Source of the DNA: Mytilus edulis
Taxonomy: Eukaryota
DNA length: 64,000 nucleotides
Assembly (NCBI RefSeq): GCF_963676685.1
Contig: NC_092348.1
Coordinates: 92,876,001 to 92,940,000 of the forward strand
Direction of reading: 5' to 3'
Shown: piece by piece, positions 2,674-57,300 of the stretch
Layout of the letters: every line of letters begins with the position of its first letter
Numbering within the stretch: position 1 is the stretch's first letter
The notes under the pieces: model-generated
Databases searched by the model: none
Seen by the model: the letters and a program-made list of their open reading frames with translations, nothing else
Told to the model about the DNA's origin: nothing
Position numbers and translations under genes: made by a program

Positions 2674-4926
2674 GATGAAGACATAATCTTTCAATCGGTT
2701 TAATTGAGGTCTGGAGTTGGCATGTCAGGAAACTGCTAGTAGTCTGTTGTTATTTATGTATTATTGTTATTTTGTTTATTTTCTTTGGTCACATCTCCTG
2801 ACATCAGACTCGAACTTCTCTTGAACTGAATTCTAATGAGCGTATTGTTATGCGTTTACTTTTCTACATTGGCTAGAGGTATAGGGGAGGGTTGAGATCT
2901 CATAAACATGTTTAACTCTGCCGCATTTTTGCGCCTATCCCAAGTCAGGAGCCTCTGGCCTTTGTTAGTCTTGTATTATTTTTAATTTTAGTTTCCTTTG
3001 TATGGAGTTTAGTATGGCGTTCATTATCACTGAACTTGTATATATATATATGTGTAGGGGCCAGCTGAAGGACGCCTCCGTGTGCGGGAATTTCTCGCAG
3101 CATTGAAGACCTGTTGGTGACCTTCTGTTGTTGTCTGCTCTATGGTCGGGTTGTTGTCTCTTTGGCACATTCCACATTTCCATTCTCAATTTTAAACCCG
3201 CTGCATTTGTTTGCACCTGTTTGACTGTCCCTCTGGTATCTTTCGTCCCTCTTTTAAGTAAGGACCCTGATGTTCAGTGTCGTTTGTTGATGTGGTTCAT
3301 AAATGTTACTCGTTTCTCTTCTTTTATATAGATTAGACTGTTGGTTTTCCCGTTTAAAAGGTTTAACACTAGCAATTTGTGGGGCCATCTACCTATAATC
3401 TTCTATTTGGTGTGCCCCTGAGACTATAGTAGTCTCAGTATGGCTCTGTGTTAAAGACTGTACTTTGACCTATAATTGTTTCCTTAACAATTGTGATTTA
3501 TATGGAGAGTTGTCTCATTGGTACTCATACCCCATCTACTTATATCTATATATTACTTTTAAGTTGTATTGAGCGAAGCAGTCTACAGTTTTTTAGAAAG
3601 CTCAAATTGACTATTCGATTGTTTTCGTTATTTTTGCCTGCATGCTAAGGGAACTAACTCCAAATAATTTACAGGTATGTTTTCTTTATATACATTCGTA
3701 TAAAGGAAATTATTATGTAAAAACCAATCCTGAAATATTTATAAAAAGATCAAGTGATAAGTTTAACCAAGCAAAAATTCATCGTTACCATCTTTATCAA
3801 ATAAAGGTTATTCTTTTGGCACATTTGGCACATTTGCACTACATGTATTTGCTATATCCGTCTACATGGTCTAATAGCCTTGAGGCTTGTTTTTATTCAG
3901 GTCCCTTGAATGACGTTTATTGTAATGACGGAAGTGCATAACTGGGCATGTTTATATAAGGGTTTCCAGTGATATGTGCCATATGCGAACTAAACAATGC
4001 TGTTGCGACTTCAGATGCCCATATTTTCTATCTACAATATTCGTTTTTGTTTTGGTAGCCATTATTGGTAATCTTACTTCCTGGTCCTATTTTGGTCTGA
4101 GCAAGGTAAGTAAACGACAACTTACATTTTTTTTAAAAACACAACATATAAATCAATGGTTCAGCGAGTGTGCGTGTACTATACTTGATGTATTGACAAC
4201 ATATTTCAATGGTACAGCTGCTACCAGATATAATTATATATATATGTATTTGCTATTATTTACCTAACATTTTTGTCACAGTTTTTTTAATTAAATGTCG
4301 GTGACGTATTAAGCAGGACAACATTATATTTTCAGTTTTTTTAGCAAGCTCAATTACATATTGTCAAATCAATAAGATGGGTTCTGAAAAGGGAGTCGAA
4401 GGGATGCATTGCGGAGAGAAATTTTACCTCTCACTATTTCAAAGAGACAATAAACTACCCTTAATATATATGACAACTTAAAATTGGGAGGCAGCCAACA
4501 TATATTTGTTTAATATAATTTAAACTTTTAAAGTATTAATTGTTACCAAAATATCTCAATGCCTAATGACCTTCGAAGTCGGTAACAATTAGAGATTTAA
4601 ACAATAAAATGACTGTATAAGAAATACTGATTGACTTATTGCAAGGTTTGTGGGTTTTTTTTTTTAATAGCAGCCAGTATCACACGAATATCCATTTTGT
4701 CTGACTGAAATATTTACAACAAAAACAAAAAAGTATTTGACAACATACCTTGTATTGATCTTTTATGAAGAGTAAATGCACATTTTCATGCAAAGGCGAA
4801 TAATAGATAATACCGCTCTCTCCTAAAACGCTTATAACCAATATTTGTTGCGTATTTAGAAATAAAAAAAAAAGTAGTTTGTTTGTAGTATTCTTATTCC
4901 ATTTACAGGTATCCAGCAATAACGAT

Positions 4927-7009
4927 ATGACCAGTGACATTAAAGAGCAGTCTTCAGAGGAACAGCTTGAAAGATGGATGGAACACCTACCATCTGTTGT
5001 TACAAATCAAACTCAACTTAAAGATCTTCTAATTCCTGGTAAATACATAAGAATAGTGTGTAAATAAAACGAAAAAACAGTATTTTATGTTATCATGATG
5101 TCGATAAATGCTTGTGAGTGATAATGTTGATAAATGTGGAATCTCAGCTTAAAACATTCAGGACCCGGTTGGTTACACAACTCCGTAATTATTCCCCCGC
5201 TTTAAAAAAAAATTATGGGGTTTCCTGTTTTATCTCTAACATATCTATCATCAGTGAGCAGTAGCTCGCAGTTTCACTTATCATTTACATATTCAATTTT
5301 TTTTTTAACATTCCCGTTTAAGTTATATCAATGCAGAAACATGTTTCAAATACACTGCATGTATATGTTAGGCATATTTTACATTATTAAGTTTTCTCAT
5401 ATCTGTCTATTCTTCCGTAAGCGTATGCTATTTTTATGCATTGATAATTTCTGTACCTTCATTTTGTTAAGCATAGCTTAGTCAAACTATATGTTGTCGA
5501 AGATACTATATATGTATATATATATATGAGAACCAAAAATTTGCGAAAGCAAATTTACAGATCTAACATTGTTGGGTTGATGTTTAGACGAGTTATATAT
5601 AACTCGTCTAAACATCAACCCAACAATGTTAGATCTGTAAATTTGCTTTCGCAAATTTTTGGTTCTTCCCTCGCCGGGATTCGAACCCATGCTACTGTGA
5701 TATCGTGACACCAAATCGCCTGCACTGCAGCCGTCCCGCTAGACCACACGACCACCTGGGCTCTCAAAAAAAGAGCTTTCGGTGGGCATGTGTTACCTTT
5801 CCACGTCAGTTTTAATCTAGCGGCGTACTACAGTACATGATATATAAGGCATGAAGATGTTATTGTTACAGATCAGCTAAATTATCTATAGTAAAGGATC
5901 CTACAAATTAATGTAAGATACAGTCACAGAAAATAATTATATTCATAAGTACGTCTGAGTCAGTGACAACCCTACAACAGATGTATCCATCGGATCGCCA
6001 TCAATGATGGTGATACATGGCTGTGTACATAATGTATATACAACTCGTCTAAACATCAACCCAACAATGTTAGATCTGTAAATTTGCTTTCGCAAATTTT
6101 TGGTTCTTCCCTCGCCGGGATTCGAACCCATGCTACTGTGATATCGTGACACCAAATCGCCTGCACTGCAGCCGTCCCGCTAGACCACACGACCACCTGG
6201 GCTCTCAAAAAAAGAGCTTTTGGTGGGCATGTGTTACCTTTCCACGTCAGTTTTAATCTAGCGGCGTACTACAGTACATGATATATAAGGCATGAAGATG
6301 TTATTGTTACAGATCAGCTAAATTATCTATAGTAAAGGATCCTACAAATTAATGTAAGATACAGTCACAGAAAATAATTATATTCATAAGTACGTCTGAG
6401 TCAGTGACAACCCTACAACAGATGTATCCATCGGATCGCCATCAATGATGGTGATACATGGCTGTGTACATAATGTATACACAACTCGTCTAAACATCAA
6501 CCCAACAATGTTAGATCTGTAAATTTGCTTTCGCAAATTTTTGGTTCTTCCCTCGCCGGGATTCGAACCCATACTACTGTGATATCGTGACACCAAATCG
6601 CCTGCACTGCAGCCGTCCCGCTAGACCACACGACCACCTGGGCTCTCAAAAAAAGAGCTTTCGGTGGGCATGTGTTACCTTTCCACGTCAGTTTTAATCT
6701 AGCGGCGTACTACAGTACATGATATATAAGGCATGAAGATGTTATTGTTACAGATCAGCTAAATTATCTATAGTAAAGGATCCTACAAATTAATGTAAGA
6801 TACAGTCACAGAAAATAATTATATTCATAAGTACGTCTGAGTCAGTGACAACCCTACAACAGATGTATCCATCGGATCGCCATCAATGATGGTGATACAT
6901 GGCTGTGTACATAATGTATATACAACTCGTCTAAACATCAACCCAACAATGTTAGATCTGTAAATTTGCTTTCGCAAATTTTTGGTTCTTCCCTCGCCGG
7001 GATTCGAAC

Positions 7010-7065
<56 letters not shown>

Positions 7066-8535
7066 AATAAAGTGCGAATGTGAATTGGGACTGTGTTAAA
7101 GAGACAAAAACCCAATCAAAGAGCAGAAAACAGCTAAGGGCCATCAATGGGTCTTAAACACTATGTGGAAACCACTTCGTGCAGACTTCTTGGATCCCCC
7201 AGGATAACATCTACTAGTATACCAAATAATAAATCATTATTGAAGGCACTGATTATTTAAATCCTGTAAGTTCAGTTTTCGTCAGAAAAAACTGTAAGTT
7301 TTTGAAGTTTAGAATTGCATCATTGATGTGAGCGCACTTACAGCTGTCAATGAATCTATAACAACCCCGAGTGACAACCCCAGAAATATATCACATCATC
7401 CCTACATCAGAAACCAGTTCTATTTTTAAATTTTGTTTTTTGTAAAGTCAAATATTCAATCTCTACCAACCAGCTGGTAAGAATAAGACAGACGCAAAAA
7501 AAACCAACCCCAAAAACCACCAATGCATACAATTTAATACCGTTTTTAAAAAGGGTCCCCTCATAAACATGACCTAATTTGTATTTTACTCTTATTGAAA
7601 CAAACAAAGGATACCAGTTGTCCAGAAAAGTCAAATATTTTTTATGTTGATTTGATTTTTTTTCTACATTTTTTTTTTACATTTCATTGGTAGGTTCTCA
7701 TGATTCTGCAACTTTTGACCTTGACCCTGCAGGTGGAAAAGCAGAGGACTTTTCATCCTACATAAAAATGGCGGATGAAAAGATTGAAAGATGGTTTAAA
7801 ACACAAAACCTTGATTTTACGGAACAATTGAAGATTGGCGTTCGATACTTTGACCTGCGGATTATCAAACACCCTGAGACGGGTGATATTCGTTTTGTCC
7901 ATGGACTGTTCAGTCGTAAAACCGTCATAGAGTACCTGAAAGATATTCGGAAATTTCTCGATGAAAATAAGAAAGAAGTAGTTCTGTTGGACTTTAACCA
8001 TGTTTACAATATGGGTAAACACGATCATATATCTCTTTGTACGGAAATGGAAAGCACTTTCAATGGCATGATGCTAAATAGGAAGAAATGTTTAGATAAT
8101 GATATGCTCCTGAGTAAAATGACACTATCAAAATTGTGGGAATTAAATGGACGAGTTGTAGTGATGTATGTTAGGAAATGTCCAAACAACGAGTATATCT
8201 GGTCTCGGAACGAAATAGATATATTATGGCCGTATACACCTAATAATGAATTAGTTGTGAAAAATCTTCTGGATCAGTACAAAGGTCTTTACAAAAAGGA
8301 TATTATGGTCGTATGGCATGGAATATTAACGCCACACAGTGATGACAACTTTTCAGATAGAATAGAACGTTTTAAAGATCTCCATGAATTTGTCACACCA
8401 ACAACAGAGGTTATTGTGGACTGGATTAAATCTCTTGCAGATGTTCCTTTCAACATCTGCTGTGCAGATTTCGTGGAAGAACACGATTTTGTCAAAACAG
8501 TTATAAATGCAAACATTATACCGGCGATTGTTTAA
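4927..8535 (+). CDS. PLCXD: PI-PLC X domain-containing protein (PLCXD-like), 2 coding exons, 317 aa
   Basis: Exon 4927-5038 (MTSDIKEQ...WMEHLP...LKDLLIP G|gt) splices to 7694-8535 (ag|GT TCT CAT GAT TCT), giving IPGSHDS. Downstream motifs: WFKTQ, EQLKIGVRYFDLR, FVHGL, FLDENKKEVVLLDFNH, NICCADFV. Both putative catalytic His residues are present. Acceptor at 4907-4908; a possible upstream non-coding exon donor lies at 4106. Confidence 0.92.
5529..5666. repeat. Perfect 138-bp palindrome (inverted partial copy of the 441-bp unit end)
   Basis: 5529-5597 is the exact reverse complement of 5598-5666, centred on GTTATATATAAC. Confidence 0.95.
5601..7011 (-). repeat. Tandem array of about 3.2 near-identical 441-bp units, each with a tRNA-derived head
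   Basis: Units start at about 5601, 6042, 6483 and 6924 (last one partial) and differ by only a few substitutions. On the minus strand each full unit has box A TGGTCGTGTGG and box B GGTTCGAATCC. The array is flanked by (TA)n at about 5507-5527 and 7012-7062. Confidence 0.95.
5667..5761 (-). pseudogene. tRNA-like (Leu/Ser-type D-loop) SINE head; further copies at 6108-6202 and 6549-6643
   Basis: Minus strand GCCCAGGTGGTCGTGTGGTCTAGCG...ATGGGTTCGAATCCCGGCGAGGGA. A and B boxes are intact but the acceptor stem pairs poorly, so this is not a functional tRNA. Confidence 0.6.
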
Positions 8536-16286: not shown

Positions 16287-17254
16287 AACAAGAGGCTGTC
16301 ACAACGACAGCAAACCGGATTTATTAACATTTATTTGTGTCCTGGCTATATCACAAGAACCATTACTGATGAATGGTGAAAGTGAAAATCGTCAATATCA
16401 AATTTGACCTCCATTTTGTCATCAGTATCAACATATTAAAATTTGAAAAGCTTAGATTGAATGGTTCATGAGTAAATGCAACAACCTGAATGGAAACGCC
16501 ATTTTACGATCTTTCAAGAACCATAACTCCTGAACGGTAAAAGTCAAAATCGTCATTATTGAACTTGACCTCTATTTTGTCATCAGTAACAACATATTAA
16601 AATTTCAAAAGCTTTGGTTGAATGGTTCATGAGAAAATGCACGGACACGACGGGAAAAACCATTTTTCAATCGTTCAAGAACCATAACTCCTGAACGGTA
16701 AAAGTCAAAATCGTCATTTTTGAACTTGACCTTCATTTTGTCATCAGTAACAGCATATTAAAATTTCGGAAGCTTTGGTAGAACAGTTCATGCATAAATG
16801 CACGGACACGACTGGAAAATCCATTTTTCAATCTTTCAAGAACCATAACTCCTGAACGGTAAAAGTCAAATTCGTCATTATTGAACTTGACCTCCATTCT
16901 TTCATTAGTAACAACATATTAAAATTTGGTAAGCTTTGGTAGAACAGTTCATGCGTAAATGCACGGACAACTCCATTTTCCAATCTTTCAAGAACCATAA
17001 CTCCTGAACAGTAAAAGTCAAAATCGCCATTATTGAACTTGACCTTCGTATAGTTGTCAGTAATAACATATTAAAATTTTAAAAGCTTTGGTTGAACGGT
17101 TCATGAGTTAATGCACGGACAACATTTGATTGCCGCCCGCCCGCCCGCCCGCCCGCCCGCCCGCCCGACCGCCCGCCCGCCCGCCCGACCGCCCGCCCGC
17201 CGTACATCCCCAAATCAATAACCGACATTTTTGTCACAAAAATCCGGTTAAAAA
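16287..17254 (-). mobile_element. Helentron/HINE (pearl-like) non-autonomous element with an internal satellite
   Basis: Terminal short hairpin GCTGTCACAACGACAGC (16295-16311); subterminal inverted repeat AACCGGATTT (about 16313) and AAATCCGGTT (about 17240); about 5 tandem units of 152-161 bp (CAAGAACCATAACTCCTG at 16515, 16676, 16837, 16989); (CGCC)n microsatellite at 17132-17202. Confidence 0.75.
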
Positions 17255-38977: not shown

Positions 38978-39612
38978 TGGATCAGGTTTGTATGGTTTAT
39001 CAATCACCATCTTAAATGAGCTGTGGATCAGGTTTGTATGGTTTTATGTTTATCCACCACCAAAAACAGATGTACTGTGGATCAGGTTTGTATGGTTTAT
39101 CCACCATCAATAACAGATGAGCTGTGGATCAGGTTTGTATGGTTTATCCACCACCCATAACAGATCTAGATGAGCTGTGGATTAGGGTTGTATGGTTTAT
39201 CCACCACCAATAACAGATGAGCTGTGGATCAGGTTTGTATGGTTTATCCATCACCAATAACAGATGTGTTGTGGATCAGGTTTGTATGGTTTATCCACCA
39301 CCAATAACAGATGTGTTGTGGATCAGGTTTGTATGGTTTATCCACAACCAATAACAGATGAGCTGTGGATCAGGTTTGTATGGTTTATCCACCATCAATA
39401 ACAGATGTGTTGTGGATCAGGTTTGTATGGTTTATCCACATCCAATAAAAGATGAGCTGTGGATCAGGTATGTATGGTTTATCCACCACCAATAACAGAT
39501 GTGTTGTGGATCAGGTTTGTATGGTTTATCCACCACCAATAACAGATGTGTTGTGGATCTGGTATGTATGGTTTATCCACCACCAATAACAGATAAGCTG
39601 TGGATTAGTTTG
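38978..39612. repeat. Minisatellite, 47-bp unit x about 13
   Basis: GCTGTGGATCAGGTTTGTATGGTTTATCCACCACCAATAACAGATGA repeated. Confidence 0.95.
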
Positions 39613-46596: not shown

Positions 46597-46653
46597 TAGA
46601 TTTTAGACCGTTGATTTTCCTGTCAAGTTGAATTGATATACACTTGTCAGTTT

Positions 46654-47008
46654 GGGCCTTCATAGCTTTCTGTTCGATGTGCACCAATTCTCCGTGTTGG
46701 TCCTTCATAGCTTTCTGTTCGATGTGCACCAATTCTCCGTGTTGGTCCTTCATAGCTTTCTGTTCGATGTGCACCAATTCTCCGTGTTGGTCCTTCATAG
46801 CTTTCTGTTCGATGTGCACCAATTCTCCGTGTTGGGCCTTCATAGCTTTCTGTTCGATGTGCACCACTTCTCCGTGTTGGTCTTTCATAGCTTTCTGTTC
46901 GATGTGCACCACTTTTCCGTGTTGGTCCTTCATATCTTTCTGTTCGGTGTGCACCAATTCTCCATGTTGGGCCTTCATAGCTTTCTGTTTGGCCGTGCAC
47001 CAATTCTC
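46654..47008. repeat. Minisatellite, 45-bp unit x about 8
   Basis: CCTTCATAGCTTTCTGTTCGATGTGCACCAATTCTCCGTGTTGGT repeated; it explains the four overlapping repetitive ORFs. Confidence 0.95.
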
Positions 47009-47279
47009 AGTGTTAAAGTCGTACTTTTACCTATATAATTGTTTACCTTTAACACAGTGTGACTTGGATGTAGGGTTGTCTTATTGGTACTTCATCTTCT
47101 CACTTATAAAGTAAGGATATATAGCAAGAATTAAAAAAGTTGTTGGTAAGAAACTACCACAAAAACAAGCTTGTTTATGTTACTAAGCCAAAGGTAGAGG
47201 TTGCATAGTCCACATATTTTTCCTAGAAACATCTTAGAACAGTGCCACAAGGAATTTTGTATTCCGAAAAGTCTCGAAC

Positions 47280-54300: not shown

Positions 54301-57300
54301 AAAATGACAATACATGTTCAGTTATGTGTAACATTCTAGACCAGGCTGTGGAATCGAATTCGTTCACAGCTCTAGAAGGTCATCGTCGTCTAGATTACAT
54401 TATACTAGTAAAAATATCAACGGACATTTGAATTACTAGTACATCATCATCAATTTAAAAAGAAGATTTCATGCGGTTAATTAAAAATGCCATTGCATTA
54501 TTAGATTTTCCTCCTAAATTTCAAAAGACTGACGAACGACTTTAAACACAGCATTTTTTTCTGGTATGTAATCCTCATTTACTTTAAAAGATTCAAGAAA
54601 AGAGACCAAGTCGTATATAACAAGAGTTATACTAAGACTAAACGTCATGGAGTGTTTGACATTTTCGTTCAGAATAAATTGACTGATGCACATGTTGAAC
54701 AATGTTTAATGAATTGTACCATATTAACTACTGCATAATCGCCCCAAAAACGCCTTAAGTAATTAAAGGTTCTAGTATGGCATCAGAAATTTTTATATCG
54801 ATTTACGGTCTGTTTCCACGATGAGTCTTTCAATGAGTATCTATATTCTGATAGTAGAGGTTATTTTTCTAAATAAGCTCAAAGGGGGGGGGGGGGGGGG
54901 TGTAAAATCGGTTCTTTTTCTGTCTATTGGATGTTTTATGTGTACTGACTGATATTTTTTTTAATTTTCAATAGTTGCCATTGACTTTGAACTAGCTGTC
55001 AGTAACTGCGAGTACCCTCAGATCTGTACTTTGTGTTTTTTGTGTTGTAAGGAATGTAAAAATACTCTGCCTCGTCCGGTTTGTGTTTTTTTTTATATCT
55101 GTTTTCTGCTTTGTAACTATCTGTAGAGTTAAGCATGTTTTATTTGATTTTAATAGTTTGTTTTTATGTTGTGCTGTAACTCTAGTGTCCCAGGTTAAGA
55201 GAGGATTCAGCACTCTCAAACATGTTTAATCTGGCCTCATTCTTAATGTGCTTGTCCCAAGTTAGGAGACTGTAGTTCAGTGGTGGACGTTGGTTCGTGT
55301 TTGTCATATTTTTTTCTTTCCTAAATTGTATTGTTATAGATTAGGCCGTTGGGTTTCTCAATTGAATTATTCATATTTTTCATGTCGGGGCCTTTTATAG
55401 TCGACTATGTGATATGAGTTTTTGTTATCGCTGAAGACCGTACGATTGACTATAAATGTGTTTATCAACTTCATTTGAACCTTGCAATATTGTAAGATAG
55501 TTGTCTCATTGGCAATTGTATTTCATCTTATTTTTATAAGAAAAGTCAACCTTAACCAAGATGAATGTGAAACAATGCTGGCAGTTATTCGGCTGAAAAA
55601 CATATGGTACATGTACTCGGGACATTTCATTCTGTAATCACGTCTAGGAAATACAATGACTTTGATCGATCTCTGCAGATCCTTATGAATATCCGGCCAC
55701 CGAAAGCATGATATTTGTCGATTATAGGTGGTCGAGTGGTCTAGCGAGCCGGGCACAGTGCAAGGCGATATAAAAGTTCCGGGATTGATAACCAAATCTG
55801 AAAGGAAAAAAAATCAAGTGAGAAAATTAGCGACATAATTTGATCTAATATCAACAGAAAAATACCAAATATACGAACTGAAATTGACTTTATTTATATT
55901 TTCAGTTGGAAGAAACACTCTTCATTTATTTATACCATCTACTACCCAATTAAAGACAGCTCTGTCATGGGTAAAGAAAGGTGGCCGTTATAGCCCTGAC
56001 GATTGCATTCCCCGTCACCATGTTGCCGTTATTGTACCATTTAGAGACAGAGACCAACACCTAAAAACATTTCTGTATAATATACACCCCTTCTTAAGGC
56101 GACAACAACTGGACTACGGGATATATATCATAGACCAGGTACGAATGATATTTTGGCATAATTTTTTTATAAGTAGATAGTTTTTTCAGTTTCCTAACAA
56201 ATATTTTCTAAAAAAATGCTTGCTTTAATTTTTATATTAATGACCTCAATACTGATTTAATAATTCAAATATCGCCAAGTTTAATTTTCCCAAATCTTGT
56301 TTTGTTCATATGATGGCATTCACTGTGAAAACCACAAAACATAACCCTTCTACTACACTGATATTCTACACAAAACGTAACCCTTCTACTACACTGATAT
56401 TCTACACAAAACATAACCCTTCTACTACACTGATATTCTACACAAAACATAACCCTTCTACTACACTGATATTCTACACAAAACATAACCCTTCTACTAC
56501 ACTGATATTCTACACAAAACATAACCCTTCTACTACACTGATATTCTACACAAAACATAACCCTTCTACTACACTGATATTCTACACAAAACGTAACCCT
56601 TCTACTACACTGATATTCTACACAAAACACAACCCTTCTACTACACTGATATTCTACACAAAACATAACCCTTCTACTACACTGATATTCTACACAAAAC
56701 ATAACCCTTCTACTACACTGATATTCTACACAAAACATAACCCTTCTACTACACTGATATTCTACACAAAACATAACCCTTCTACTACACTACATAACCC
56801 TTCTACTACACTGATATTCTATTTTTTTTTTATCTTCAGATAGGTACTTCTAAATTTAATCGTGCCATGTTGATGAACATAGGTTATGCAGAATCGATAA
56901 AAAATCACAAGTATACCTGTTTTGTATTTCACGATGTTGACCTTTTACCCGAGGATGACAGAAATTCCTACACGTGCACAACACAACCAAGACATTTGTC
57001 AGCAGCTATTGATAAATTCAGATACAGGTAAAATCACAGACGTTGAATGAAGACGATAAATTAATAGAAACAACTTCAAAAGATCGATATAGGATAAATC
57101 AATTAAATAAATCTTAATTCAAAAATTTGAAGGGTGAAGGTCAAACTGGTTGCAAGATTCATCATGTTAATGATTTGCTTTAGTTTTATAAATGAAGTTA
57201 TGGTGTGTTTTGTATTGTTACTTTGTTTTAAACGTGTTTTGTTTAATTTGTAATAAGAAGATTAAAAAGCTCAATAGAGCTTATGTTTTCTGTATTCTAA

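Follow-up and report, generated by a model that had tools for sequence, protein, structure and literature searches.

A young tRNA-headed tandem element family of Mytilus edulis that ends in TA repeats: a candidate Penelope-dependent, retrozyme-like element without a hammerhead

The tandem array described here is one copy of a young, dispersed family of non-autonomous retroelements with a 441-bp repeated unit, which we denote family A. Our preferred reading, to which we assign a probability of about 0.55, is that family A is a retrozyme-like element that depends on Penelope-like elements (PLEs), lacks a hammerhead and is processed without a known ribozyme. Mobilization by PLEs, taken by itself, appears highly probable.

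Anatomy of the array

The window is the whole 64,000-nucleotide stretch of Mytilus edulis DNA that was analysed (contig NC_092348.1 of assembly GCF_963676685.1, positions 92,876,001-92,940,000, forward strand), and positions given below without a contig name are relative to it. The array occupies 5594-7013, where TRF finds 3.2 copies with a period of 441 and 99% matches, in agreement with the approximately 3.2 nearly identical units reported in the first-pass annotation; the three units differ at 3 positions among them. We numbered the unit on the minus strand, from u1 (6647, the G after a T7 run) to u441 (6207), with this full 441-bp unit (6207-6647) as the reference. All on the minus strand, the array begins with a 5'-truncated unit (u76-u441, 6648-7013), continues through two full units (6207-6647 and 5766-6206) and stops in a last partial unit (u1-u165, 5601-5765), just past a TAGAC signal (5610-5606). 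The array is permuted, with a mid-head start and a mid-unit end, as described previously; the start does fall at the B box, at u76, but this position has no special meaning and reflects just 5' truncation.

Tail-to-tail with the array lies a second, short 5'-truncated copy (u100-u165, 5529-5594) in the opposite, plus orientation, which ends at the same base, the main 3' end site of the family, yielding perfect 69-nt inverted arms (5529-5597 and 5598-5666). The spacer between the two 3' ends had been given as TATATATA; the inverted arrangement around a spacer stands, but its extent does not, because the spacer is strictly ATATAT (5595-5600) and TATATATA includes the last base of each arm. Both outer flanks are (TA)n target runs, as claimed, at 5507-5527 on the left and, as (TA)25 identified by TRF, at 7012-7062 on the right.

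The minus-strand promoter and terminator words proposed earlier were all located. Each head carries an A-box-like word, TGGTCGTGTGG (u12-22; 6626-6636, also 6185-6195 and 5744-5754), and a B box, GGTTCGAATCC (u79-89; 6559-6569, also 7000-7010, 6118-6128 and 5677-5687), both of which we take to be Pol III boxes by consensus. T7 runs are present at 6654-6648, 6213-6207 and 5772-5766, and each unit contains one internal T4 (6815, 6374 and 5933). The first YAGAC end signal (u156-160, 6488-6492, minus strand) marks the main 3' end site of the family, and a second one, 94 bases past the first (u250-254, 6394-6398, minus strand), marks a minor site; the internal GTATATAC word 5 bases past the first signal reads GTGTATAC in the reference unit. 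An invariant AAGGTAA (u408-414, 6234-6240, also 6675-6681 and 5793-5799, minus strand) sits in a predicted three-way junction and is a candidate processing site. The end of the unit (u365-434) is predicted to pair with the next head (u1-46) in a covarying RNA rod (6161-6283, minus strand). ARAGORN called no tRNA anywhere in the window, and Rfam gave only hairpin-driven miRNA matches there, below their cut-offs.

Exon-like frames of a plus-strand gene flank the insertion (4910-5038 and 7732-8199), the downstream one matching PI-PLC-X; because the array lies between these two stretches, it is probably intronic and antisense to a PI-PLC X-domain gene. Elsewhere in the window, an old, diverged fragment of the same kind, with the border hairpin and the A-box region, is found at 55680-55830 (plus strand). 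Other tandem repeats of the window are located at 16354-17123, 39040-39612, 46652-47014 and 56333-56791, with periods of 161, 47, 45 and 36; the one with the 161-bp period may be an internal repeat of a mobile element.

Copy number, end points and age of family A

Tabulation of copies and end points across the genome (1.37 Gb in 14 large contigs), as suggested in the first-pass annotation, showed that family A is dispersed: a 29-base word of the head has 3,720 exact matches, compared to none for the reversed control. With thousands of dispersed copies, the unit is not a sequence that was only duplicated locally. End statistics were collected from the first 30 matches along contig C1, in order of position, which gave 27 distinct arrays after overlapping loci were merged, the two arms of one inverted insertion being counted apart. 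The 3' ends in this sample are not random: they fall at u165 in 20 of the 27 arrays, near u262 in 4 and elsewhere in 3, so that 24 arrays stop at either of two internal YAGAC..TATA sites 94 bases apart. The 5' ends are scattered over the unit, with a start at u1-4 in 5/27 arrays. Most copies begin inside the preceding unit and stop at u165 or u262, and some are head-to-u165 monomers; arrays contain 1 to 7 heads, 7 being the longest among the first 100 matches listed. Genome-wide, the u150-165 word is followed by TA at 3,093 places and by further unit sequence at 3,513.

Units within an array are more alike (median of 5 changes, 34 pairs from 9 arrays) than units of different arrays (11 changes, 340 pairs), and variants of the unit border (T4-AAT and T5-AT, for example) are inherited substitutions common to all units of one array. 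Apart from the TA runs, the outer flanks of the 27 arrays share no sequence and no terminal repeats, which speaks against the alternative that the unit is an internal repeat of a DNA transposon or Helentron. Target duplications are not readable inside TA runs. At one locus (G000:C5:2838747-2843066), two unit variants alternate with an 880-bp period, as would arise from a two-unit template or from later duplication.

Homogeneous tandems whose 3' end is fixed while the 5' end is random are what target-primed reverse transcription produces from a template that is circular or repeated, as established for PLEs (PMC8557442). The first-pass annotation had proposed a non-autonomous element copied from circular or read-through RNA by a Penelope-like reverse transcriptase (RT) at TA repeats, and the 3' ends fixed at TA runs and the variable 5' ends support this proposal as a reading of the insertion anatomy.

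Sister families and metagenome relatives

Three further tandem families, B, C and D, were found in TA runs beside PLEs. Family B has a 475-bp unit and 166 exact head matches, and 24 of its 27 arrays end at the same two sites; family C has a 435-bp unit, 62 matches and a degenerate B box. Along the unit, both families can be aligned with A, and the A and B boxes are kept in A, B and the metagenome relatives. Family D (553-568 bp, 1,465 exact matches of its end word; example at G000:C1:13138515-13141541) is unrelated to A, contains a type I hammerhead core and is a true hammerhead retrozyme, which ends with the same TTTAGAC..TATA signal. Each of the four families terminates in (TA)n, and PLE copies often end in the same run.

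Among 54 metagenome contigs that matched a pattern including the AAGGTAACAC word, for which these contigs were selected, 32 are relatives, many with the same end: 30 are B-like (best identity about 70-93%), one is A-like at 90% and one matches at 99%. The remaining 22 resembled none of A, B and C and were set aside as chance matches. Two unrelated metagenome contigs (L243 and L260) combine AAGGTAACAC with a small hairpin and a tRNA-like head, arranged in a similar order, and are not matched by the RNA model described below.

Penelope-like elements as candidate partners

A GIY-YIG search of the genome yielded 858 candidates, of which 150 were scored, so that a closer partner than those described here may exist; 16 regions were examined. 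The elements denoted F1, F3, F4 and F5 end in TA runs. F1 and F5 contain open frames of 959 and 911 aa, respectively, with an RVT_1 domain, a CX4CxxC linker and, C-terminally, a GIY-YIG domain, and are intact PLEs of the Neptune/Nematis type. Two YAGRC words are present at their 3' ends, with a spacing of 93 bases in F1 and 89 in F5, compared to 94, 88 and 89 in families A, B and C, and copies of F5 end at either site. There is no YAGRC near the 3' end of F4, F0 or F2, and F3 has one away from its end. Among loci chosen for GIY-YIG only, YAGRC occurs 8 or fewer bases upstream of TA runs in 26 of 285 cases, compared to 419 of 18,400 random places. BLAST of the unit against the 3' ends of F1 and F5 found no homology beyond the 5-base word, its spacing and the shared target. 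F1 and F5 are the best candidate partners of family A, a putative assignment because no longer homology links them.

Four young PLE families that target TA (L092, L100-L105, L094-L099) have open frames, and their 3' regions contain minimal motifs resembling hammerheads. A separate upstream frame of about 420 aa is present in F3 and F4, and F4 has two end sites 38 bases apart. A Naiad-type element (L093, G000:C5:1349000-1358999) encodes a 1,053-aa frame with a GIY-YIG domain at its N-terminal end and C-terminal RT motifs; we rejected Naiad as a partner because this copy has neither YAGRC near its end nor a TA run there.

The tail-to-tail end of the window array had been read as part of the evidence for Penelope-like or retrozyme-like copying. 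This reading found no support: the arrangement is a minority one, with 37 places genome-wide when spacers of up to 14 bases are counted (about 2% of ends), and it also joins unlike families (A, for example, is paired with F4 or F5, and B with F3 or F4), so that a single template is not required. Probably, such ends result from two insertions in one TA run, given that (TA)n is identical on both strands. Head-to-head inversions of the usual PLE type are found at five loci (L011, L043, L044/45, L048 and L051).

Abundant RNA continuous across the unit border

Four RNA runs of unspecified species and selection method were mapped to one unit cut at an arbitrary place; the assignment of sense assumes the usual library polarity. 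The RNA check proposed in the first-pass annotation found abundant sense RNA: two stranded raw-read runs of one study contain 4,697 matching records of 8.71 million and 3,850 of 7.34 million (about 530 per million), and 2,673 of the 4,697 are at least 99% identical to the unit. In one stranded run, X21, depth is 946-2,023 in the tRNA sense and 17-141 in antisense. Sense coverage is continuous over the whole unit and its border, with 826 reads bridging the cut ends of the reference, and the stranded sense reads show no pile-up of starts or ends of many molecules along the unit. Reads that run on into unlike sequence account for 8-9% in the stranded runs, compared to 62% in X24, a run with 412 matching reads of 12.7 million, from both strands, in a DNA-like pattern with a step at u165. 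The antisense reads of the stranded runs follow a DNA-like pattern too, with the same step. The window variant at 6227 is present in 76% of the sense reads, compared to 4/33 antisense reads and 10/37 DNA copies; the sense RNA is enriched for the youngest variant.

The T7 run had been taken to end a unit-length transcript. It is crossed by about 950 sense reads, most of them with the seven U complete, where the depth nearby is 1,200-1,400; one base of the run is missing in 84 of the 1,069 border-crossing reads. T7 does not define the main RNA, since sense reads run through it without an end pile; given the dip in depth, up to roughly a quarter of the molecules may be linear Pol III monomers. 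Depth rises near 6240 and falls 151 bases later, and adapter-bearing ends at 6238-6240 form a fragment-end pile at about u408, which may reflect an RNA 3' end or priming, possibly by hexamers, in an exposed loop.

In X8, a fish gut metatranscriptome, the unit assembled as a 471-base contig (441+30) closed on itself, at a depth of 171, and three further runs of the same study hold 83% of the unit's words. Its presence there fits a very stable RNA from food, and DNA is also possible. The simplest reading of the seamless RNA is a 441-nt circle, which we regard as reasonably probable; seamless short reads are also expected from long linear multimers, and tandem DNA likewise collapses to a closed contig.

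RNA structure and ribozyme searches

Compared with 25 shuffles, the circular folds of the young units have z-scores of -5.9 (A), -4.4 (B) and -3.6 (C), whereas an old copy of A scores -2.0. All three families fold into the long rod across the unit border, and 18 of the 22 aligned border regions fold at z of -1.97 or lower, the other 4 failing to do so. In the rod, 10 of 18 pairs show two-sided changes and 91% of 393 cells are paired, compared to 29-45% in slid controls, figures that are inflated by relatedness, for which the shuffle is uncorrected, and by the structure having been drawn from the same sequences. The T run is the variable apical loop of a hairpin of this rod and is shorter than T4 in several relatives. 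AAGGTAA, at the three-way junction, is the only invariant run; it is seen independently in A, B and C, and its constancy in the metagenome relatives is a product of the search pattern. The run is absent from family D and from the PLE ends, and an RNA model of the junction (R1) matched only A/B/C-type copies in the 48 sources scanned, beyond which further families with the junction may exist. AAGGTAA could also be a DNA promoter element, given that it lies about 30 bases before the head.

The earlier statement that the unit has no hammerhead core was borne out: CTGAnGA is absent from both strands of the window array, and a descriptor scan of young A, one old A copy, B and C was empty, with the sensitivity that it found 3 of 5 hammerhead-like controls (D, F1 and F5) and missed F3 and F4. 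Rfam detected no hammerhead in the family; it also missed that of D. Old copies of A contain CUGACGA..GAAA with a 2-bp stem II and with neither an NUH site nor stem I, and B and C lack it, so we rejected it as a chance resemblance; GAAA, a hairpin and CUA also occur in family C, where CUGAnGA is not in place. Rfam matches to twister, twister sister, pistol, hatchet, HDV-like and hairpin ribozymes were likewise absent, at the poor sensitivity that Rfam showed on the positive control. Compared by eye, UAACAC resembles the cleavage-site motif of twister, which we dismissed because the partner strands and pseudoknots are missing. Processing by tRNA nucleases, as suggested in the first-pass annotation, finds no support: no tRNA is called in the head, the acceptor stem is not formed, and the 5' half of the head pairs with upstream sequence.

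Proposed mechanism and alternatives

Young copies of family A give rise to abundant sense RNA that is continuous over the 441-nt unit and the unit border. Under the preferred reading, a multimer precursor would be read through at least two units, driven by the Pol III promoter inside the unit or by read-through of host Pol II, and one cut and rejoining per unit, most likely at the AAGGUAA three-way junction, would produce a 441-nt circle; the candidate cutters, in order of preference, are a new self-cleaving motif, a host nuclease combined with a tRNA-type ligase, and the spliceosome. As the insertion anatomy suggests, an RT/GIY-YIG protein of the Neptune/Nematis type, with F1 and F5 as the best candidates, would then nick a (TA)n run, the nick would pair with UAUA just past either YAGAC signal, and the RT would copy round the template for a variable distance, so that arrays would be permuted, fixed at the 3' end and random at the 5' end. 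Arrays that include whole units carry the promoter, junction and signals and therefore can make RNA again. A more specific version, which we put forward tentatively, holds that the AAGGUAA junction is itself the cut-and-close site, as a new class of ribozyme or a seamless splice donor/acceptor, and that the circle is copied by a Neptune-type protein that reads YAGAC, with UAUA pairing to the nicked TA.

The same Penelope-dependent element might do without a circle, its template being a linear multimer, transcribed through long arrays or as part of one highly expressed host transcript, with the tandems made by template jumping of the RT; we consider this rather unlikely, although circle and multimer are indistinguishable by short reads and arrays of 7 heads do exist. 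Naiad and MRC1 form tandems without a canonical hammerhead (PMC8557442), so tandems alone need no circle. Against the linear template, 47% of the u150-165 words in DNA end in TA, compared to 46 loose ends at 6035 at a depth of about 1,200 in X21; with so few loose ends, source arrays of about 20 units would be needed, and the longest among the first 100 matches listed has 7. The linked variants, present at about 20%, suggest several sources, and the covariation argues for selection on RNA structure across the border, both of which disfavor the linear multimer.

A Pol III monomer that extends from u1 to the T run, with its ends held by a terminal stem and then ligated, or with the RT jumping from the 5' to the 3' end, would account for the conservation of the A and B boxes in A, B and the metagenome relatives, for the starts at u1-4 and for the depth dip at the T run, and the rod would pair just as well if it were a terminal stem. 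Release by Pol III normally leaves fewer U, whereas the border-crossing reads carry U7, with one base missing in only the small fraction noted above; furthermore, the border variants are inherited substitutions common to all units of an array, T4 is absent from this position in several relatives, and the B box of family C is degenerate. We therefore consider the monomer improbable.

The spliceosome could, in principle, make a seamless 441-nt circle by back-splicing across successive units, with AAG|GUAA serving as both donor and acceptor. The one run that never varies among A, B and C fits 7 of 9 positions of the 5' splice consensus, AAGGUAA is absent from the hammerhead family D, and the fragment-end pile lies at about u408. 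Yet the acceptor is poor, with 39% pyrimidines at -24 to -5 in family A (71 copies); all 22 metagenome relatives and 16 of 18 C copies have an earlier AG at most 14 bases away; none of the joints listed is a forward splice from AAG|GUAA; and the pile can be explained by hexamer priming in an exposed loop, which makes this route a long shot.

Finally, tandem amplification as DNA, of either an ordinary tRNA-derived SINE or a repeat inside a DNA transposon, would fit the A and B boxes, the head-to-u165 monomers, the array of two alternating variants and the tandem SINEs described in bivalves (PMC11481361), but is largely refuted by the end anatomy and the RNA and is very unlikely indeed, given that most copies begin inside the previous unit, the 3' ends are internal and fixed, the 27 arrays share no outer flanks or terminal repeats, and sense RNA crosses the border.

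Relation to known elements and implications

Family A has the anatomy of a non-autonomous PLE, with a fixed 3' end, variable 5' truncation, partial tandems, inverted copies and a shared microsatellite target. The same 5' truncation, head-to-tail tandems, inverted copies and microsatellite targets are described for MRC1 and the Naiad/Neptune PLEs, among which Naiads target (TA)n and need no canonical hammerhead (PMC8557442). Elements of the MRC1 type resemble the 3' end of their partner, whereas family A shares with its candidate partners a 5-base signal and its spacing; neither a tRNA-derived head nor seamless RNA in abundance, both features of family A, is known to be described for those PLEs.

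Metazoan non-LTR retrozymes have units of 170-400 nt, 350-390 bp in a mussel, and PLEs are named there only as a strong candidate for their mobilizer (PMC7229834). The similarities to family A include short dispersed tandems, abundant structured RNA, a mussel host and a proposed PLE partner. Unlike the retrozymes described in that source, families A-C lack a type I hammerhead and have longer units (435-475 bp), a tRNA-derived head and a covarying three-way junction, and the circle here would follow only from the preferred reading; the units of family D are also longer than those of the mussel retrozymes reported there. The schistosome SM-alpha likewise has a Pol III promoter inside tandem repeats, of which multimers alone can propagate, but its hammerhead frees monomers, whereas family A has none and displays a TA target and a candidate partner (PMC6765202). 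Thus, family A lacks what defines retrozymes and SM-alpha, the hammerhead, and is neither a standard SINE nor a TRIM. Bivalve tRNA-derived SINEs share its A and B boxes and occasional tandem arrays but are defined as head-to-tail monomers with target duplications, whereas family A is permuted, with an internal end fixed in TA (PMC11481361). The Helenus, Ajax and Cassandra TRIMs also have tRNA-derived A and B boxes but two LTRs, as opposed to one repeated unit with variable 5' ends (PMC10886601).

We found no description of family A in the literature; a consensus catalogued under another label is possible, Repbase and Dfam having been outside the search. Short words of the unit are absent from the supplements of PMC11481361 and PMC10886601 and from 12 of the 33 files of PMC10294476, files that may not contain sequence libraries.

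In one genome, then, the same end signal and target are shared by two intact PLEs, three tRNA-headed families and a hammerhead retrozyme, so that a protein, a signal and a substrate can be named for the question of how such elements are mobilized. If the RNA is circular, family A would represent a route to abundant genome-encoded circles that does without a hammerhead and is missed by ribozyme-based surveys, and its conserved junction would stand as a concrete candidate RNA motif, new and either catalytic or involved in processing. If the preferred reading is true, SINE-like promoters would be joined to Penelope-type mobilization.
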